IMG/VR virus record: IMGVR_UViG_2529293041_000008
DNA from: a virus
Lineage: Duplodnaviria; Heunggongvirae; Uroviricota; Caudoviricetes
Reading direction: 5' to 3' (one strand)
Length of the DNA stretch: 11,552 nt
Below are positions 1 through 11,552 of the stretch, piece after piece. The notes beneath the pieces were generated by a model, which worked only from the letters and a program-made list of their open reading frames with translations, searched no databases and was not told where the DNA came from. Each line of letters opens with the position of its first letter. Within the stretch, counting starts at the first letter, position 1. The position numbers and the translations under genes are program-made.

Positions 1-2741
<2,741 letters not shown>

Positions 2742-2742
<1 letters not shown>

Positions 2743-3071
2743 TGGAGACGTTTCACTGGAAAGTGCGCCCGGATATGAATGTGGTATCAGAGCCGAAAGT
2801 GGTGACAGTGAAGCTGGGCGATGGTTATGAACAGCGTCGTGCGGCGGGACTGAATAACCAGTTGTCGACTTACAGCGTGACGATACGTGTTCGTAAATGT
2901 GAACACCCATCTTTAAAAGCCTTTCTGGAACGGCACGGTGGCGTCCGCGCATTTCAGTGGACGCCACCTTATGACTGGAAACCGATTAGGGTGGTTTGTC
3001 GTAAATGGTCGGCAAGCGTGGGGGCGCTGTGGGTAACCATAACGGCAGATTTTGAACAGGTCGTGGCATAG
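2742..3071 (+). CDS. M: Minor tail protein M (tail tip assembly)
   Basis: 109 aa, the same length as lambda M. Translation METFHWKVRPDM...GDGYEQR...HGGVRAFQWTPPYDW...FEQVVA resembles lambda M from memory. Start overlaps the H stop. Confidence 0.9.
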
Positions 3072-3080
3072 GAGGCTCTG

Positions 3081-3779
3081 ATGCAGGATATTCCACAGGA
3101 AACACATCATGAGACGACACGCCTCACTCAGTCAGCCCAGGTGGTGCTCTGGGAAATCGATCTGACAGAGGTCGGTGGTGAACGTTATTTTTTCTGTAAT
3201 GAGCAGAACGAAAAAGGTGAGCCGGTTACCTGGCAGGGGCGGCAGTATCAGGCATACCCCATTCAGGGGACAGGATTTGAACTGAACGGCAAGGGCAGTG
3301 CTGCCCGTCCGACACTGACGGTTTCTAACCTGCACGGCATGGTCACGGGGATGGCGGAAGACCTGCAGAGTCTGGTCGGCGGAACGGTGGTCAGGCGTAA
3401 GGTTTACGCCCGTTTTCTGGATGCGGTGAACTTCGTCAACGGAAACAGCGACGCCGATCCGGAGCAGGAGGTGATCAGCCGCTGGCGCATCGAGCAGTGC
3501 AGCGAACTGAGTGCGGTCAGTGCCTCCTTTGTGTTGTCCACACCGACGGAAACGGATGGTGCTGTTTTTCCGGGGCGTATCATGCTGGCCAACACCTGCA
3601 CCTGGACCTATCGCGGTGATGAGTGTGGTTATCACGGTCCGGCTGTCGCGGATGAATATGACCAGCCGACGTCCGATATCACGAAGGATAAATGCAGCAA
3701 ATGCCTGAGCGGCTGTAAGTTTCGCAATAACGTCGGCAACTTTGGCGGCTTCCTTTCCATTAACAAACTTTCGCAGTAA
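3081..3779 (+). CDS. L: Minor tail protein L (tail tip assembly, Fe-S cluster protein)
   Basis: 232 aa, the same length as lambda L. AGGAGG lies 8 nt upstream of the ATG. Translation MQDIPQE...VVLWEIDLTEVGGERYFFCNEQNEKGEPVTWQGRQYQ...CTWTYRGDECGY...KCSKCLSGCKF matches lambda L closely from memory, including the C-terminal Cys cluster. Confidence 0.9.
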   Translation: MQDIPQETHHETTRLTQSAQVVLWEIDLTEVGGERYFFCNEQNEKGEPVTWQGRQYQAYPIQGTGFELNGKGSAARPTLTVSNLHGMVTGMAEDLQSLVGGTVVRRKVYARFLDAVNFVNGNSDADPEQEVISRWRIEQCSELSAVSASFVLSTPTETDGAVFPGRIMLANTCTWTYRGDECGYHGPAVADEYDQPTSDITKDKCSKCLSGCKFRNNVGNFGGFLSINKLSQ

Positions 3780-3783
3780 TCCC

Positions 3784-4527
3784 ATGACACAGACAGAATC
3801 AGAGATTCTGGCGCACGCCCGGCGATGTGCGCCAGCGGAGTCGTGCGGCTTCGTGGTGAGAACGCCGGAAGGGGAAAGATATTTTCCCTGCGTGAATATC
3901 TCCGGTGAGCCGGAGGCGTATTTCCGGATGTCGCCGGAGGACTGGCTGCGGGCAGAGATGCAGGGTGAGATTGTGGCGCTGGTCCACAGCCACCCCGGTG
4001 GTCTGCCCTGGCTGAGTGAGGCTGACAGGCGGCTGCAGGTGCAGAGCGATTTGCCTTGGTGGCTGGTCTGCCGGGGTGAGATTCATAAATTCCGCTGTGT
4101 GCCGCATCTTACCGGGCGGCGCTTTGAGCACGGGGTGACGGACTGTTACACGCTGTTCCGGGATGCTTATCATCTGGCGGGGATTGAGATGCCGGACTTT
4201 CATCGTGAGGATGACTGGTGGTGTAACGGCCAGAATCTCTATCTGGATAATCTGGAGGCCACAGGGCTGTATCAGGTGCCGTTGTCAGCGGCGCAGCCGG
4301 GCGATGTGCTGCTGTGCTGTTTTGGTTCATCGGTGCCGAATCATGCCGCCATTTACTGCGGCGACGGTGAGCTGTTGCACCATATTCCTGAACAACTGAG
4401 CAAACGAGAGAGGTATACCGACAAATGGCAGCGACGCACACACTCCCTCTGGCGTCACCGGGCATGGCACGCATCTGCCTTTACGGGGATTTACAACGAT
4501 TTGGCCGCCGCATCGACCTTCGTGTAA
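3784..4527 (+). CDS. K: Tail tip assembly protein K (N-terminal JAB/MPN-like domain plus C-terminal NlpC/P60-like domain)
   Basis: ATG at 3784 sits 4 nt after the L stop; the ORF-track start at 3742 lies inside L and was not used. HSHPGGLPWLSEAD fits the JAMM-type H-x-H-x7-S-x2-D motif. Cys in DCYTLF and downstream His residues fit an NlpC/P60 fold. The 103-nt out-of-frame overlap with I matches lambda; the shorter 199-aa lambda K annotation would correspond to Met49 here. Confidence 0.85.
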   Translation: MTQTESEILAHARRCAPAESCGFVVRTPEGERYFPCVNISGEPEAYFRMSPEDWLRAEMQGEIVALVHSHPGGLPWLSEADRRLQVQSDLPWWLVCRGEIHKFRCVPHLTGRRFEHGVTDCYTLFRDAYHLAGIEMPDFHREDDWWCNGQNLYLDNLEATGLYQVPLSAAQPGDVLLCCFGSSVPNHAAIYCGDGELLHHIPEQLSKRERYTDKWQRRTHSLWRHRAWHASAFTGIYNDLAAASTFV

Positions 4528-5072
4528 AAACGGGGGCTGAAGCCATCCGGGCGTTGTCCACACAGCTCCCGGCGTTTCGTCAGAAACTGAATGACGGCTG
4601 GTATCAGGTGCGCATTGCCGGGCGTGATGCAGGTGAAACCGAATTATCTGCCCGTCTTAATGAGCCGCTGGCAAATGGTGCCGTGATCCACATCGTGCCG
4701 CATCTGGCGGGAGCTAAAAGTGGCGGTGTGTTTCAGGTGGTGCTGGGGGCGGCGCTGATTGCGGTGGCATGGTGGAACCCTGTGGGCTGGCTGGGTGCCG
4801 CGGCTGTATCGGGCATGTATGCGGCAGGGGCCAGTATGATCCTGGGTGGTGTGGCCCAGATGCTGGCACCGAAAGCCCGGACGCCCACAGCGACCAGCAC
4901 GGATAACGGTAAGCAGAACACCTATTTCTCATCACTGGATAACATGGTTGCCCAGGGCAATGTTCTGCCTGTTCTGTACGGTGAAATGCGCGTGGGGTCT
5001 CGTGTGGTTTCTCAGGAGATCAGCACGGCAGATGAAGGGGACGGTGGTCAGGTTGTGGTGATTGGCCGCTGA
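4425..5072 (+). CDS. I: Tail tip assembly protein I
   Basis: 215 aa. GAGAGG lies about 12 nt upstream. N-terminus MAATHTLPLASPGMARICLYGDLQRFGRRIDLRV and C-terminus ...NGKQNTYFSSLDNMVAQGNVLPVLYGEMRVGSRVVSQEISTADEGDGGQVVVIGR resemble lambda I from memory. The I-J gap is 60 nt, as in lambda. Confidence 0.85.
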   Translation: MAATHTLPLASPGMARICLYGDLQRFGRRIDLRVKTGAEAIRALSTQLPAFRQKLNDGWYQVRIAGRDAGETELSARLNEPLANGAVIHIVPHLAGAKSGGVFQVVLGAALIAVAWWNPVGWLGAAAVSGMYAAGASMILGGVAQMLAPKARTPTATSTDNGKQNTYFSSLDNMVAQGNVLPVLYGEMRVGSRVVSQEISTADEGDGGQVVVIGR

Positions 5073-5090
5073 TGCAAAATATTTCATGTG

Positions 5091-5116
5091 AAACCGCCTC
5101 CGGGCGGTTTTGTCGT
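5091..5116 (+). other. Intergenic stem-loop between I and J (8-bp stem AAACCGCC/GGCGGTTT, loop TCCG, followed by a T-rich tract)
   Basis: Inverted repeat 5091-5098 / 5103-5110 followed by TGTCGTTT. Looks like a weak intrinsic terminator or RNA stability element inside the late tail operon. Function not determinable from sequence. Confidence 0.35.
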
Positions 5117-5132
5117 TTATGGAGCATGACGA

Positions 5133-8100
5133 ATGGGCAAAGGAAGCAGTAAGGGGCATACCCCGCGCGAAGCGAAGGACAACCTGAAGTCCACGCAACT
5201 GCTGAGTGTGATTGATGCCATCAGCGAAGGGCCGATTGACGGTCCGGTGGATGGATTAAAAAGCGTGCTGCTGAACAGTACGCCGGTGCTGGACAGTGAG
5301 GGGAATACCAATATCTCCGGTGTCACGGTGGTGTTCCGGGCTGGTGAGCAGGAGCAGACTCCGCCGGAGGGATTTGAATCCTCCGGCTCCGAGACGGTGC
5401 TGGGTACGGAAGTGAAATACGACACGCCGATCACCCGGACCATCACGTCGGCAAACATTGACCGACTGCGTTTTACCTTCGGTGTGCAGGCACTGGTGGA
5501 AACCACCTCAAAGGGGGACAGGAATCCGTCGGAAGTCCGCCTGCTGGTTCAGATACAACGTAACGGTGGCTGGGTGACGGAAAAAGACATCACCATTAAA
5601 GGCAAAACCACCTCACAGTATCTGGCATCGGTGGTGGTGGGTAACCTGCCGCCGCGCCCGTTCAATATCCGGATGCGCAGGATGACGCCGGACAGCACCA
5701 CAGACCAGCTGCAGAACAAAACGCTCTGGTCGTCATACACCGAAATCATCGATGTGAAACAGTGCTACCCGAACACGGCACTGGTCGGCGTACAGGTGGA
5801 TTCGGAGCAGTTCGGCAGCCAGCAGGTGAGCCGTAATTATCATCTTCGCGGGCGCATTCTGCAGGTGCCGTCGAACTATAACCCGCAGACGCGACAATAC
5901 AGCGGTATCTGGGACGGAACGTTAAAACCGGCATACAGCAACAACATGGCCTGGTGTCTGTGGGATATGCTTACCCATCCGCGCTACGGCATGGGGAAAC
6001 GTCTTGGTGCGGCGGATGTGGATAAATGGGCGCTGTATGTCATCGGCCAGTACTGCGACCAGTCAGTGCCGGACGGCTTTGGCGGCACGGAGCCGCGCAT
6101 CACCTGTAATGCGTACCTGACCACACAGCGCAAGGCGTGGGATGTGCTCAGTGATTTCTGCTCGGCGATGCGCTGTATGCCGGTATGGAACGGGCAAACG
6201 CTGACGTTCGTGCAGGACCGACCGTCGGATAAGGTGTGGACCTATAACCGCAGTAATGTGGTGATGCCGGATGATGGCGCGCCGTTCCGCTACAGCTTCA
6301 GCGCCCTGAAGGACCGCCATAATGCCGTTGAGGTGAACTGGATTGACCCGAACAACGGCTGGGAGACGGCAACAGAGCTTGTGGAGGATACGCAGGCCAT
6401 TGCCCGTTACGGTCGTAACGTCACGAAGATGGATGCTTTTGGCTGTACCAGCCGGGGGCAGGCACACCGCGCCGGGCTGTGGCTGATTAAAACAGAACTG
6501 CTGGAAACGCAGACCGTGGACTTCAGCGTGGGCGCAGAAGGGCTTCGCCATGTGCCGGGCGATGTCATTGAAATCTGTGATGATGACTATGCCGGTATCA
6601 GCATCGGCGGGCGCGTGCTGGCGGTAAACAGCCAGACCCGGACGCTGACGCTCGACCGTGAAATCACGCTGCCATCCTCCGGTACCACGCTGATAAGCTA
6701 GGTTGACGGAAGTGGCAATCCGGTCAGCGTGGAGGTCCAGTCCGTCACCGACGGCGTGAAGGTAAAAGTGAGCCGTGTTCCTGACGGCGTTGCCGGATAC
6801 AGCGTGTGGGGGCTGAAGCTGCCGACGCTGCGCCAGCGCCTGTTCCGCTGCGTGAGTATCCGTGAGAACGACGACGGCACGTATGCCATCACCGCCGTGC
6901 AGCATGTACCGGAAAAAGAAGCCATCGTGGATAACGGGGCGCACTTTGACGGCGACCAGAGCGGCACGGTGAATGGTGTCACGCCGCCAGCGGTGCAGCA
7001 CCTGACTGCCGAAGTCACCGCAGACAGCGGGGAGTATCAGGTACTGGCCCGCTGGGATACGCCGAAGGTGGTGAAGGGCGTGAGTTTCATGCTTCGCCTG
7101 ACCGTGGCAGCGGATGACGGCAGTGAGCGGCTGGTCAGCACAGCCCGGACGGCGGAAACCACATACCGCTTCACACAACTGGCGCTGGGGAACTACAGGC
7201 TGACAGTCCGGGCAGTAAATGCGTGGGGGCAGCAGGGCGATCCGGCATCGGTATCGTTCCGGATTGCCGCACCGGCAGCGCCGTCGCGGATTGAGCTGAC
7301 GCCGGGTTATTTTCAGATCACCGCCACGCCGCATCTTGCGGTTTATGATCCGACGGTACAGTTTGAGTTCTGGTTTTCGGAAAAGCGGATTACCGATATC
7401 AGGCAGGTTGAAACCAGCGCGCGCTATCTTGGCACGGGGATGTACTGGATAGCCGCCAGTATCAATATCAAACCGGGCCATGATTATTACTTTTATATCC
7501 GCAGTGTGAACACCGTTGGCAAATCGGCATTCGTGGAGGCTGTCGGTCAGGCGAGCGATGATGCGGAAGGTTACCTGGATTTTTTCAAAGGCCAGATAAC
7601 CGAATCCCATCTCGGCAAGGAGCTGCTGGAAAAAGTCGAGCTGACGGAGGATAACGCCAGCAAACTGGAGGAGTTTTCGAAAGAGTGGCAGGACGCTAAC
7701 GATAAGTGGAATGCCATGTGGGGCGTCAAAATTGAGCAGACCAAAGACGGCAAACATTATGTCGCGGGTATTGGCCTCAGCATGGAGGACACGGAAGAAG
7801 GCAAGCTGAGCCAGTTTCTGGTTGCCGCTAACCGTATCGCGTTTATTGACCCGGCAAACGGGAATGAAACGCCGATGTTTGTGGCGCAGGGCAATCAGAT
7901 ATTTATGAACGACGTGTTCCTGAAGCGCCTGACGGCCCCGACCATTACCAGTGGTGGAAATCCACCGGCATTTTCCCTGACATCAGACGGAAAGCTGACC
8001 GCTAAAAATGCGGATATCAGTGGCAGAGTGAATGCGAACGCCGGGACGCTCAACAATGTCACGGTAAATGAAAACTGTACGATTAAGGGCATGCTGGAGG

Positions 8101-8546
8101 CGACTCAGGTCAGAGGTGACTTCGTTAAAGCTGTATCCAAATCATTTCCGAAACAGGCTGGTACGTGGGGTAACACGGAAACACCAAACGGGACGGTTAC
8201 AGTCACCATCAGCGATGATCATAACTTTGACCGTCAAATCATTATTCCGCCCATTATCTTTAACGGAATAGCGTATAGCTATCCGGGAAGTGGTAATAAC
8301 CCGGGAGGTACAAGATACACGGGTTATGGTTTTGAAGTTCGCAAAAACGGTGTATTAATCGCATCCAGAGAAACTAAAGGGGCCATTCCCGGTAGCTACA
8401 GTGCGGTTATTGATATGCCGAGTGGCAGGGGAAGCGTCACTCTGGAGTTTAAGGTTTTCCATAAAGGCAATCAGTGGGCAGGTAATATCACCGACTGTAC
8501 GGTGATTGTGACCAAAAAAGCCGCTTCCGGCATCAGTATTCGTTGA
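5133..8546 (+). pseudogene. J: Central tail fibre / host specificity protein J, full length but interrupted by one in-frame amber codon (TAG 6699-6701); ORF-track pieces 5133-6701 and 6729-8546 are the same frame
   Basis: The two pieces are in the same frame and together span about 1136 codons, close to lambda J (1132 aa). N-terminus MGKGSSKGHTPREAKDNLKSTQLLSVIDAISEGPIDG is lambda-J-like. The sequence right after the stop ([29 protein letters not shown]) continues the J protein with no start codon or RBS. The last ~150 aa differ from lambda J as I recall it. Confidence 0.85.
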
Positions 8547-8566
8547 AATTGTTATAACCCATATAA

Positions 8567-8591
8567 GGGCACCAGAAATGGTGCCTTTTTT
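8567..8591 (+). terminator. Rho-independent terminator after J
   Basis: Stem GGCACC (8568-8573) / GGTGCC (8580-8585), loop AGAAAT, followed by TTTTTT (8586-8591). Confidence 0.6.
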
Positions 8592-8615: not shown

Positions 8616-9218
8616 ATGCGTAAAGTTTGTGCAGCAATTTTGTCCGCAGCCATCTGTCTGTCCGTATCCGGTGCGCCTGCATGGGCGTCTGAACATCAGT
8701 CCACACTGAGCGCGGGGTATCTTCATGCCCGGACGAACGCTCCCGGTAGCGATAATCTTAACGGGATTAACGTGAAATACCGTTATGAATTTACGGACAC
8801 GCTGGGGCTGGTGACGTCATTCAGCTATGCAGGAGACAAGAATCGCCAGCTTACCCGTTACAGCGATACCCGCTGGCATGAAGATTCCGTGCGTAACCGC
8901 TGGTTCAGCGTGATGGCGGGGCCGTCTGTGCGCGTGAATGAATGGTTCAGCGCGTATGCGATGGCGGGTGTGGCTTACAGCCGTGTGTCGACTTTCTCCG
9001 GGGATTATCTTCGCGTAACTGACAACAAGGGGAAAACGCACGATGTGCTGACCGGAAGTGATGACGGTCGCCACAGCGACACCTCTCTGGCGTGGGGAGC
9101 TGGCGTGCAGTTTAACCCGACCGAATCCGTGGCCATTGATATTGCTTATGAAGGCTCCGGCAGTGGCGACTGGCGCACTGACGGTTTCATCGTGGGTGTC
9201 GGTTATAATTCTGATTAG
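8616..9218 (+). CDS. lom: Lom-family outer-membrane beta-barrel protein (Ail/PagC/OmpX family), lysogenic-conversion moron; C-terminus apparently altered by a 1-nt deletion
   Basis: GAGAGG RBS about 7 nt upstream. Signal peptide [24 protein letters not shown] followed by SEH. Alternating beta-strand pattern with ...DGFIVGVGY near the end. Sits between J and the tail fibre as in lambda and has its own downstream terminator. Ends GYNSD, lacking the family-typical terminal Phe. Confidence 0.85.
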
Positions 9219-9278: not shown

Positions 9279-10549
9279 ATGGCAGTAAAGATTTCAGGTG
9301 TACTGAAAGACGGCACAGGAAAACCGGTACAGAACTGCACAATCCAGCTGAAAGCAAAACGTAACAGTACCACTGTGGTGGTGAACGCGCTGGCCTCAGA
9401 AATCCGGATGAAGCCGGGCGTTACAGTATGGACGTTGAGTACGGTCAGTACAGCGTTATTCTGTTGGTGGAGGGATTCCCGCCGTCACATGCCGGGACCA
9501 TCACCGTGTATGAAGATTCTCAACCCGGTACGCTGAATGATTTTCTCGGTGCCATGACGGAGGATGATGCCCGTCCGGAGGCACTGCGACGTTTTGAACT
9601 GATGGTGGAAGAGGTGGCGCGTAACGCTGAGGAGGCGAAGAAGAATGCCGGAGAGGCAGAGACGTCAGCGAGGAATGCGGGTATATCAGCCGGCCAGGCG
9701 GAAAAGAGTGCAGTAAATGCTGAGACTTCTGCAGGGGATGCATCGGAGTCAGCCCGGCAGGCGACGGAAAGTGCAGCCTCAGCAAAGCAGTCAGAGGATG
9801 CGTCCTCGTCCTCGGCTTCTGCGGCCGCTCAAAAAGCCAGTGAGTCATCACAAAGTGCAGCAGAAGCTGAATTGTCAAGAAAGACGGCAGAAAGTGCAGC
9901 CGGTAATGCATCCAGGGATGCAACGACCGCAGCAGAAAAAGCCCGGGAGTCAGCAGAAAGCGCACAGTCAGCGGAACAAAGCAGGATAGCGGCGGAAGAC
10001 GCCGTAAACCGAATCCCCACCGTGGTGGGACCTCCCGGGCCAAAGGGGGAACAGGGGCCCGCGGGTCCTCAGGGGCCGAAGGGTGATAAGGGAGAGCGCG
10101 GTGACACCGGCCCTGTCGGGGCAACCGGCGAACGGGGACCGGCAGGTGATGCTGGTCCGGCAGGCCCGCAGGGGCCGAAAGGTGACAGGGGAGAGCGGGG
10201 AGAGACCGGTCTGACGGGAAATGCAGGTCCACAGGGTCCAAAGGGAGATACCGGTGCGGCAGGCCCACAGGGACCGAAAGGAGAAACAGGTGCGGCTGGC
10301 CCGGTGGGGGCAACCGGACCTCAGGGACCGAAGGGCGACCCGGGGGAGACACAAATCCGTTTTCGTCTGGGGCCGGCGAGCATTATTGAGACAAACAGCA
10401 ATGGCTGGTTCCCGGATACAGATGGCGCACTCATCACCGGACTGACCTTTCTTGACCCCAAAGATGCCACACAGGTTCAGGGGCTGTTTCAGCATTTGCA
10501 GGTCAGGTTTGGTGACGGGCCGTGGCAGGATGTTAAGGGGCGTGGATGA
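9279..10549 (+). pseudogene. stf: Side tail fibre protein (lambda Stf-like N-terminus, Ala/Ser/Glu-rich coiled region, collagen-like repeat, C-terminal globular domain) with a -1 frameshift near codon 40
   Basis: ATG at 9279 is preceded by TGAGGTG. N-terminus [36 protein letters not shown] matches lambda Stf from memory. The frame then drifts into nonsense and stops at 9536, while the neighbouring frame continues with the Stf-like ...[60 protein letters not shown]. The shift is at the A-run in TCAGAAATCC (9396-9405). Confidence 0.75.
10028..10342 (+). repeat. Collagen-like repeat: 35 uninterrupted Gly-X-Y triplets within the tail fibre gene
   Basis: Direct translation: [105 protein letters not shown]. 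Confidence 0.9.
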
Positions 10550-10604
10550 AGTGGGCAGTGATACAGGCAGAACAGGAGAATGACATGAATATACTAAAAA
10601 ACTT

Positions 10605-10853
10605 ATGCAGCGTCTGTGTGGTTGCGGAAAGCATGATGGCCGTGAACACGTGCAGTCGCTTACAGCACAACTGCGTCTGGGGCCGGCAGACATCCTGGAG
10701 TCCGATGAGAATGGTATTATTCCGGAGCAGGACAGGGTAATCACGCAGGTGGTGATACTGGATGCAGATAAAAAGCAGATACAGTGCGTGGTAAGACCGC
10801 TGCAAATCCTGCGTGCTGACGGGGTGTGGGAAAATATTGGCGGGATGAAGTAA
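10605..10853 (+). CDS. Short ORF (82 aa) paralogous to the C-terminal domain of the upstream tail fibre; possible fibre-tip or chaperone-like module, or a remnant of a second fibre gene
   Basis: ...AQLRLGPADILESDENGIIPEQDRVITQVVILDADKKQIQCVVRPLQILRADGVWENIGG aligns with the fibre C-terminus ...[62 protein letters not shown]. An identical 14-mer CGTCTGGGGCCGGC occurs at 10364-10377 and 10674-10687. No good RBS before the ATG at 10605, so start and frame are uncertain. Followed by a terminator-like hairpin. Confidence 0.45.
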   Translation: MQRLCGCGKHDGREHVQSLTAQLRLGPADILESDENGIIPEQDRVITQVVILDADKKQIQCVVRPLQILRADGVWENIGGMK

Positions 10854-10897: not shown

Positions 10898-11084
10898 TCA
10901 TGTCATGGTGATGTTTGTTAATGAAGGCTTGAGGGAATATTTATCCGTATGAAGGAATATGGTAATGCCTGGATTAATATCATATGTGTCATCGGCTTCA
11001 TCGTGAATGAGATGATGGAGCTGCGTCAGCAGGTAATGGAGGGGCAGATTGGTGGATTTCTCCTGGGAGGGGCTGTCTCTTATA

Positions 11085-11110
11085 CACAAATCCCCACCCG
11101 GGGATTTGTG
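11085..11110. repeat. Perfect 11-bp inverted repeat with 4-nt spacer (CACAAATCCCC-ACCC-GGGGATTTGTG) overlapping the inner part of the IS terminal repeat
   Basis: Arms 11085-11095 and 11100-11110 are exact reverse complements, read directly from the sequence. Confidence 0.8.
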
Positions 11111-11237
11111 ATGTCTGTCAGTCTGCTTTAGGGGGACTCTTTCCATCCGGTAGTTTCCTTCCTCCCCGGCAGCGATTTTTTGAACTTTTTCCTCACCCGT
11201 TGATCTTCTCTTATATTTCATTTTCTTCGGGTCTGTT

Positions 11238-11552
11238 ATGGTACTTTCTGATTGTTATTCATGGGCTAACGAGCAGTTTTGACATGCCCGTCTCGGTGAT
11301 CCGCGTCGTACACGACGCCTTGTGTCACTGGCCTCTTCTCTCGCTCAGCATGCAGGTCTTTCTATTGTGAAATCATCCCAGTCCACTGCTCAGGTTGAAG
11401 GTGCGTACCGCCTGATACGTAACCCGTCTGTGTCCCCGCAAGCCATTGCCGAAGCCGGATTTACCGCCACTGTAAGGGCATGTGAGGCTCATCCGCTGCT
11501 CCTCGCGCTGGAAGACACCACCACCATTAACTTCAGTCACAGTACGGCATCT
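11238..11552 (+). pseudogene. IS50/Tn5-like transposase N-terminal region (3' end outside window), interrupted by an in-frame TGA at codon 15 (11280-11282)
   Basis: MVLSDCYSWANEQF-TGA-HARLGDPRRTRRLVSLASSLAQHAGLSIVKSSQSTAQVEGAYRLIRNPSVSPQAIAEAGFTATVRACEAHPLLLALEDTTTINFSH aligns in frame with the Tn5 Tnp N-terminus as recalled (...DWAKSVFSSAALGDPRRTARLVNVAAQLAKYSGKSITISSEGSKAMQEGAYRFIRNPNVSAEAIRKAG...LLAIEDTTSLSYRH). The TGA falls at a sense position (Ser18 of Tn5 Tnp). Confidence 0.65.

Follow-up and report, generated by a model that had tools for sequence, protein, structure and literature searches.

Like the J genes of phages lambda and 434, the J gene described here encodes a series of Pfam domains in the same order and lies in the gene order M-L-K-I-J-lom-stf. 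It aligns collinearly with lambda J along the full length of the protein. With phage 434 J it has the length of 1137 aa in common, and aa identity is 94-99% along the protein. Codon 523 is a sense codon in lambda and 434 (Leu or Gln outside the present locus), whereas it is TAG here. Lambda J differs also in its last ~130 residues, which diverge from the J described here, while those of phage 434 J match it at 95%. Amber codons in J have long been known from the classical lambda sus J mutants, which are tail-defective and can be suppressed in a supE host. In contrast to those mutants, the present J comes from a natural isolate, is not from lambda and is not a selected conditional-lethal mutant, and its amber codon sits among non-suppressible lesions of the same prophage.

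Defective lambdoid prophages of EHEC and EPEC, such as the Sp prophages of O157 Sakai, provide another comparison. In these prophages, as in the present locus, a lambda-like tail module is followed by type III effector cargo. The portion of PMC2669165 drawn on here describes frameshifts, deletions and IS insertions as common in the morphogenesis genes of lambdoid prophages of pathogenic E. coli. Inactivation of morphogenesis genes by IS insertions and point lesions is likewise common to those prophages and the present one. The lesions given in that portion of PMC2669165 are frame-shift mutations, deletions and IS insertions, whereas the lesion in the present J is a nonsense substitution.

The stretch of DNA analysed, called the window below, corresponds from end to end to contig AFJB01000002.1 (11,552 bp) of E. 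coli DEC2B (assembly GCA_000249175.2). Within the DEC reference collection, DEC2 and DEC1 are enteropathogenic clones of serotype O55:H6. The features of the window are as follows.

1-398, plus strand: 3' end of IS100 (IS21 family; istB C-terminus at 39-332), adjoining the truncated tape-measure gene
399-2742, plus strand: tape-measure gene remnant, from about codon 239 of the 1018-aa orthologue
2742-5072, plus strand: M (2742-3071), L (3081-3779), K (3784-4527) and I (4425-5072), intact, with Pfam matches; full-length aa identity with the orthologues of DCE7 is 98.6-100%
5133-6701, plus strand: J N-terminal reading frame, 522 codons up to the amber (GenBank EHU44962.1; lambda J 1-522)
6699-6701, plus strand: premature TAG, J codon 523; CAG (Gln) in the nearest intact alleles and CTG (Leu) in most, TAG also in DEC1A
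6702-8546, plus strand: J C-terminal part, codons 524-1137, untranslated barring readthrough (lambda J 524-1131; EHU44963.1 from GTG 6729)
8616-9218, plus strand: lom (Ail/Lom outer-membrane protein), in which a 1-bp deletion at 9206 alters the last few codons only
9279-10853, plus strand: side-tail-fibre genes, with tblastn pieces in different frames
10965-11072, plus strand: 5' fragment of a type III effector gene (NleG family), broken off after ~36 codons by ISEc13
11062-11552, plus strand: end of ISEc13 (IS4 family), running off the contig edge, 99-99.8% identical to ISEc13 transposase loci

The J frame, 5133-8546, comprises 1138 codons in single-frame translation, including the natural stop at 8544-8546. 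Codon 523, at 6699-6701, is TAG (CTG ATA AGC TAG GTT GAC GGA at 6690-6710), and this is the sole internal stop in the 1137-codon frame, as a preliminary description made from the sequence alone had stated. The stop divides J into two ORFs in one frame, 5133-6701 (522 aa) and 6729-8546 (605 aa, from the first GTG past the stop). The product of the first is labelled 'phage tail fiber / phage host specificity protein J' in GenBank and that of the second 'hypothetical protein ECDEC2B_0334'. Residues 1-522 are collinear with residues 1-522 of lambda J (PDB 8iyk_J) and residues 524-1137 with residues 524-1131; intact J orthologues are 1137 aa long too. Both halves had been called lambda J-like in the preliminary description, which allowed that the pieces might align to different proteins; both match the same 8iyk_J chain. 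Since the two halves align to one protein with exactly one codon replaced, the TAG reads as a homology-anchored premature stop in a J orthologue and not as the chance stop of a random frame.

Six J-specific Pfam families were found in the expected order, each above the cut-off. Upstream of the stop are FNIII-A_GpJ (J residues 86-207) and Phage-tail_3 (330-496). Past the stop are Ig_J (610-714), Ig_J_second (716-818), Phage_Tail_Tip (845-972) and the receptor-binding Ig_GpJ_C (1001-1136). The expectation of a truncated product of ~522 aa that lacks a receptor-binding C-terminus agrees with this arrangement, as everything from the Ig-like domains through the tail-tip fibre to the receptor-binding domain at the C-terminus lies past the stop. 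An unsuppressed product would thus have nothing with which to reach a receptor or bind to it. The window J has the full-length collinear homology to lambda J, the set and order of domains and the position after I and before lom and stf (order M, L, K, I, J, lom, stf) of a gpJ/TipJ protein. It has no uninterrupted frame for one polypeptide, owing to the TAG at codon 523, and is therefore a pseudogene rather than a functional member of gpJ/TipJ. Presumably, no full-length J is made from the window allele.

Residues 1001-1137 of the window J (window 8133-8546) are 95% identical to phage 434 J and only loosely lambda-like. By this similarity the window J is classed as a 434-type host-range allele, not a LamB-type lambda J. 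The receptor of phage 434 is OmpC.

The codon at position 523 was compared among relatives. When 6560-6840 was matched against 5,426 complete E. coli genomes, the best three matches (the second prophage of DCE7, EC12 and Z1323PEC0014) were 99.6% identical, and their sole difference in 281 bp was at 6699, where they have C for T, so that the codon reads CAG (Gln). CTG (Leu) was found in O104:H4 strains, which are the next-closest group, in the first prophage of DCE7, in phage 434 and in Escherichia phage PhiR63_1. A pattern scan of IMG/VR viral contigs with codon 523 left free gave at least 120 loci with the same flanks, and 120 of the 120 among the matches listed had CTG. Overall, a sense codon was present in 125 of 125 other alleles among the matches listed, about 121-122 of them CTG and 3-4 CAG. 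None of the 5,426 complete genomes of E. coli matched 6560-6840 at 100%, and the TAG allele was thus not found among them, nor was there an exact match to it in species-representative genomes or metagenome contigs. In all of the collections searched, it occurred only in the DEC2B and DEC1A contigs.

As is expected of a nonsense pseudogene, orthologues lack the stop, and a single substitution separates it from the sense codon of the nearest allele. A stop codon used for programmed readthrough would be conserved among homologues, whereas this one is confined to DEC2B and DEC1A. Gln, the residue in the three nearest alleles, was among the four ancestral options named in the preliminary description. 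The most parsimonious path, and a likely one, would be from CTG (Leu) to CAG (Gln) to TAG, the last step being a C-to-T transition at 6699.

The 605-aa downstream J ORF is also recorded in a second strain, E. coli DEC1A (contig AIEV01000015.1; assembly GCA_000249055). When aligned with the window, this contig was 98.2% identical, with 184 substitutions and 15 gaps. These differences lie outside a 2.2-kb block, window 6372-8569, which is 100% identical in DEC1A, TAG included; the two contigs are therefore distinct sequences from two strains. The lesion is thus reproduced in an independent sequence. The base call at the TAG rests on two draft assemblies, DEC2B and DEC1A, which are presumably the output of one sequencing project. 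Past the TAG, DEC1A J is the same as DEC2B J, and the differences from other alleles are mosaic in a comparison of synonymous and nonsynonymous positions. DEC1A J has in addition a frameshift of its own, an extra A at 5204 of the DEC1A contig, upstream of the TAG. Along the whole contigs of DEC2B and DEC1A, 100% identical blocks alternate with 3-10% divergent ones (window 3858-6371 and 9368-10332). This pattern suggests that the locus has recombined with further lambdoid prophages resident in the host, or that the assembly is a chimera of paralogous prophages.

The window begins in an insertion sequence. Positions 1-398 match, at 99-99.8% identity, the istB copies of IS100kyp that occur in thousands of E. 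coli records, the product of 39-332 has the Pfam domain IstB_IS21, and prophage homology begins at 399. The DCE7 tape-measure protein matched the window by tblastn in three pieces, in frames 1, 3 and 1. The indels responsible in DEC2B are a 1-bp deletion at 935 (-1) and a 1-bp insertion at 2038 (+1). Neither is present in DEC1A, where a single open tape-measure ORF runs from the IS junction. At the other end, the stf gene with the N-terminal domain is frameshifted in DEC2B by a 1-bp deletion at 9399 and a 1-bp insertion at 10542, and the gene with the C-terminal domain has a deletion in an A-run at 10595. The phage_tail_N Pfam domain of DEC2B stf is divided between two ORFs, in contrast to DEC1A, where there is one ORF of 434 aa. 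These indels were placed by alignment to the first prophage of DCE7 and the DEC1A contig. The single-base indels found only in DEC2B (935, 2038, 9206, 9399, 10542 and 10595) may be mutations or draft consensus errors. Those at the end of lom and in the stf genes may be consensus errors, since DEC1A has none of them and most sit in short homopolymers.

Downstream of the tail fibre genes, 10880-11072 matches at 98.5-99% loci with a gene of the NleG family, the start of which lies 85 bp into the matching stretch. The first base of the DEC1A contig lies 7 nt inside the end of IS100, and the contig runs on through the identical ISEc13 junction, and so both IS junctions are common to DEC1A and DEC2B. 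Neither the IS100/tape-measure junction nor the nleG/ISEc13 junction was found in the complete genomes of the E. coli collection. The closest relative over 399 to ~6388 is the DCE7 prophage with nleH and cif behind its tail fibre genes, and by this relationship the element in the window is classed as an effector-carrying lambdoid prophage. The element has further inactivating lesions besides the amber codon, namely IS100 and ISEc13, both common to DEC1A, and the tape-measure and stf frameshifts of DEC2B. Because its tape-measure gene is cut by IS100, the prophage is predicted to be non-functional for tail assembly, whatever the state of J. The preliminary description had missed both this defective setting, apparent at the IS100 and ISEc13 junctions, and the 434-type receptor-binding end, apparent from the 95% match to 434 J.

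Taken as a whole, the TAG is very probably a real, inherited nonsense mutation in the J gene of a decaying prophage. Directly observed are the stop and its homology context, the presence of the TAG in two strains, the sense codons of the relatives and the IS junctions. A rare CAG (Gln) variant of the usual CTG (Leu) would have been converted to TAG by one C-to-T transition at 6699, and the allele would then have been inherited within the clonal enteropathogenic E. coli O55:H6 group, represented by DEC2B and DEC1A. Translation would end after residue 522, past Phage-tail_3 (330-496), so that neither the Ig-like domains nor the tail-tip fibre and the 434-type receptor-binding domain behind them would be made. 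The J amber would have joined a prophage that was already disabled by IS100 in the tape-measure gene and by ISEc13, which truncates the cargo end. The IS100 cut, the J amber and the ISEc13 cut are common to both strains, and the prophage was thus inherited in a defective state. The J amber is an ordinary lesion of prophage decay and not a regulated or recoded stop, and we infer that the mutation is neutral. The J frame of DEC2B has no second lesion besides the TAG, and so either the mutation is recent or the frame is under some constraint.

An artefact, in which the true codon is CAG or CTG and the TAG is a miscalled base or the chimeric consensus of collapsed paralogous J copies, is improbable. 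The DEC2B draft contig has at least 6 single-base indels that are missing in DEC1A, several of them in short homopolymers, which suggests an imperfect consensus. There is a median of 3 J-like places per E. coli genome, so that repeat collapse is possible, and the alternation of identical and divergent blocks between the DEC2B and DEC1A contigs fits it as well. However, the suspicious errors in the DEC2B contig are indels, not substitutions, and the TAG is an identical substitution in two separately assembled strains, within a 2.2-kb block otherwise free of differences. A random sequencing error at 6699-6701 appears very unlikely, because the TAG is present in both strains in a 100% identical block whose flanks differ at ~180 positions; the point-substitution error that the preliminary description offered as an alternative has become unlikely with the identical TAG of the separately sequenced DEC1A. 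A column-wise chimera would require that some allele have T as the first base of the codon, and as none did among the ~125 alleles in the matches listed, a chimeric consensus was rejected.

Even less probable is a conditional gene, in which the amber is read through by a suppressor tRNA or by leaky termination and full-length J can be used in trans by resident prophages. The 1137-codon J frame of DEC2B is intact apart from the TAG, and complementation between defective prophages is documented for O157 Sakai in the portion of PMC2669165 drawn on here. A supE-type tRNA-Gln would also restore Gln, the ancestral residue, so that this much of the earlier proposal that full-length J could be made in a suppressor host stands. 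The rest of the proposal is moot, since IS100 splits the tape-measure gene of DEC2B and DEC1A alike, and DEC2B has frameshifts in its tape-measure and stf genes besides; with the prophage's own tape-measure gene broken, amber suppression could not restore an infective tail. Against the conditional gene stand also the sense codon in 125 of 125 other alleles among the matches listed, the additional frameshift (extra A) upstream of the TAG in DEC1A J, and the window itself, in which no tRNA gene was found along its 11,552 nt. There is scarcely any likelihood that J is a split gene, with a tip assembled from two separately made pieces, the N-terminal 522 aa and a C-terminal part re-initiated at a codon such as GTG 6729. 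Gene callers do annotate the 605-aa ORF from this GTG, and J is annotated in two pieces in the deposited genome of PhiR63_1. However, the split in PhiR63_1 lies elsewhere, at a 2-bp gap in a G-run, and in the relatives examined codon 523 is a sense codon and the chain is continuous there, as it is in lambda J. GTG 6729 is preceded by no Shine-Dalgarno-like sequence and there is no nearby in-frame ATG; re-initiation past the stop is thus unlikely and was set aside.

If the TAG is an inherited nonsense mutation, its significance is mostly for annotation: EHU44962.1 and EHU44963.1 are the two halves of a single J pseudogene, and the contig is the remnant of a defective effector-carrying prophage. 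The TAG and both IS junctions, which the two strains have in common, could be used as lineage markers of the DEC1/DEC2 O55:H6 clone. For an apparently suppressible amber codon, the state of the neighbouring genes should be judged before a conditional function is proposed. This kind of feature is well known; as far as we found, the particular instance has no earlier description in the literature. There is a slim chance that the amber allele is kept and not merely tolerated, with the otherwise intact 3.4-kb 434-type J frame serving as a silent reservoir in O55:H6. If so, one T-to-C reversion could reactivate the reservoir J, and so could low-level readthrough or its recombination into other resident lambdoid prophages. 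The alternating blocks of the DEC1A and DEC2B contigs suggest that the J locus takes part in mosaic exchange with such prophages.

Several minor observations were made in related sequences and in the window. In Escherichia phage PhiR63_1 (PV340573.1; host given as ECOR13), J is annotated as two overlapping CDS, at 201-3612 of the region compared. The 2-bp gap that splits them is equivalent to window 7078-7079, and it is either an assembly error or a genuinely frameshifted J. The tape-measure gene of the O104:H4 2009EL-2071 prophage is frameshifted according to the RefSeq annotation, a further case of decay in this tail module. Relative to DCE7, the stf region of the window has a 9-bp in-frame deletion at 10256. 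An antisense ORF of 564 aa (6063-7757, minus strand) spans the amber site and is open both in the window and in the DCE7 allele. It is broken by a stop in phage 434, and it was therefore set aside as a gene and is probably a shadow ORF of the GC-rich J frame.
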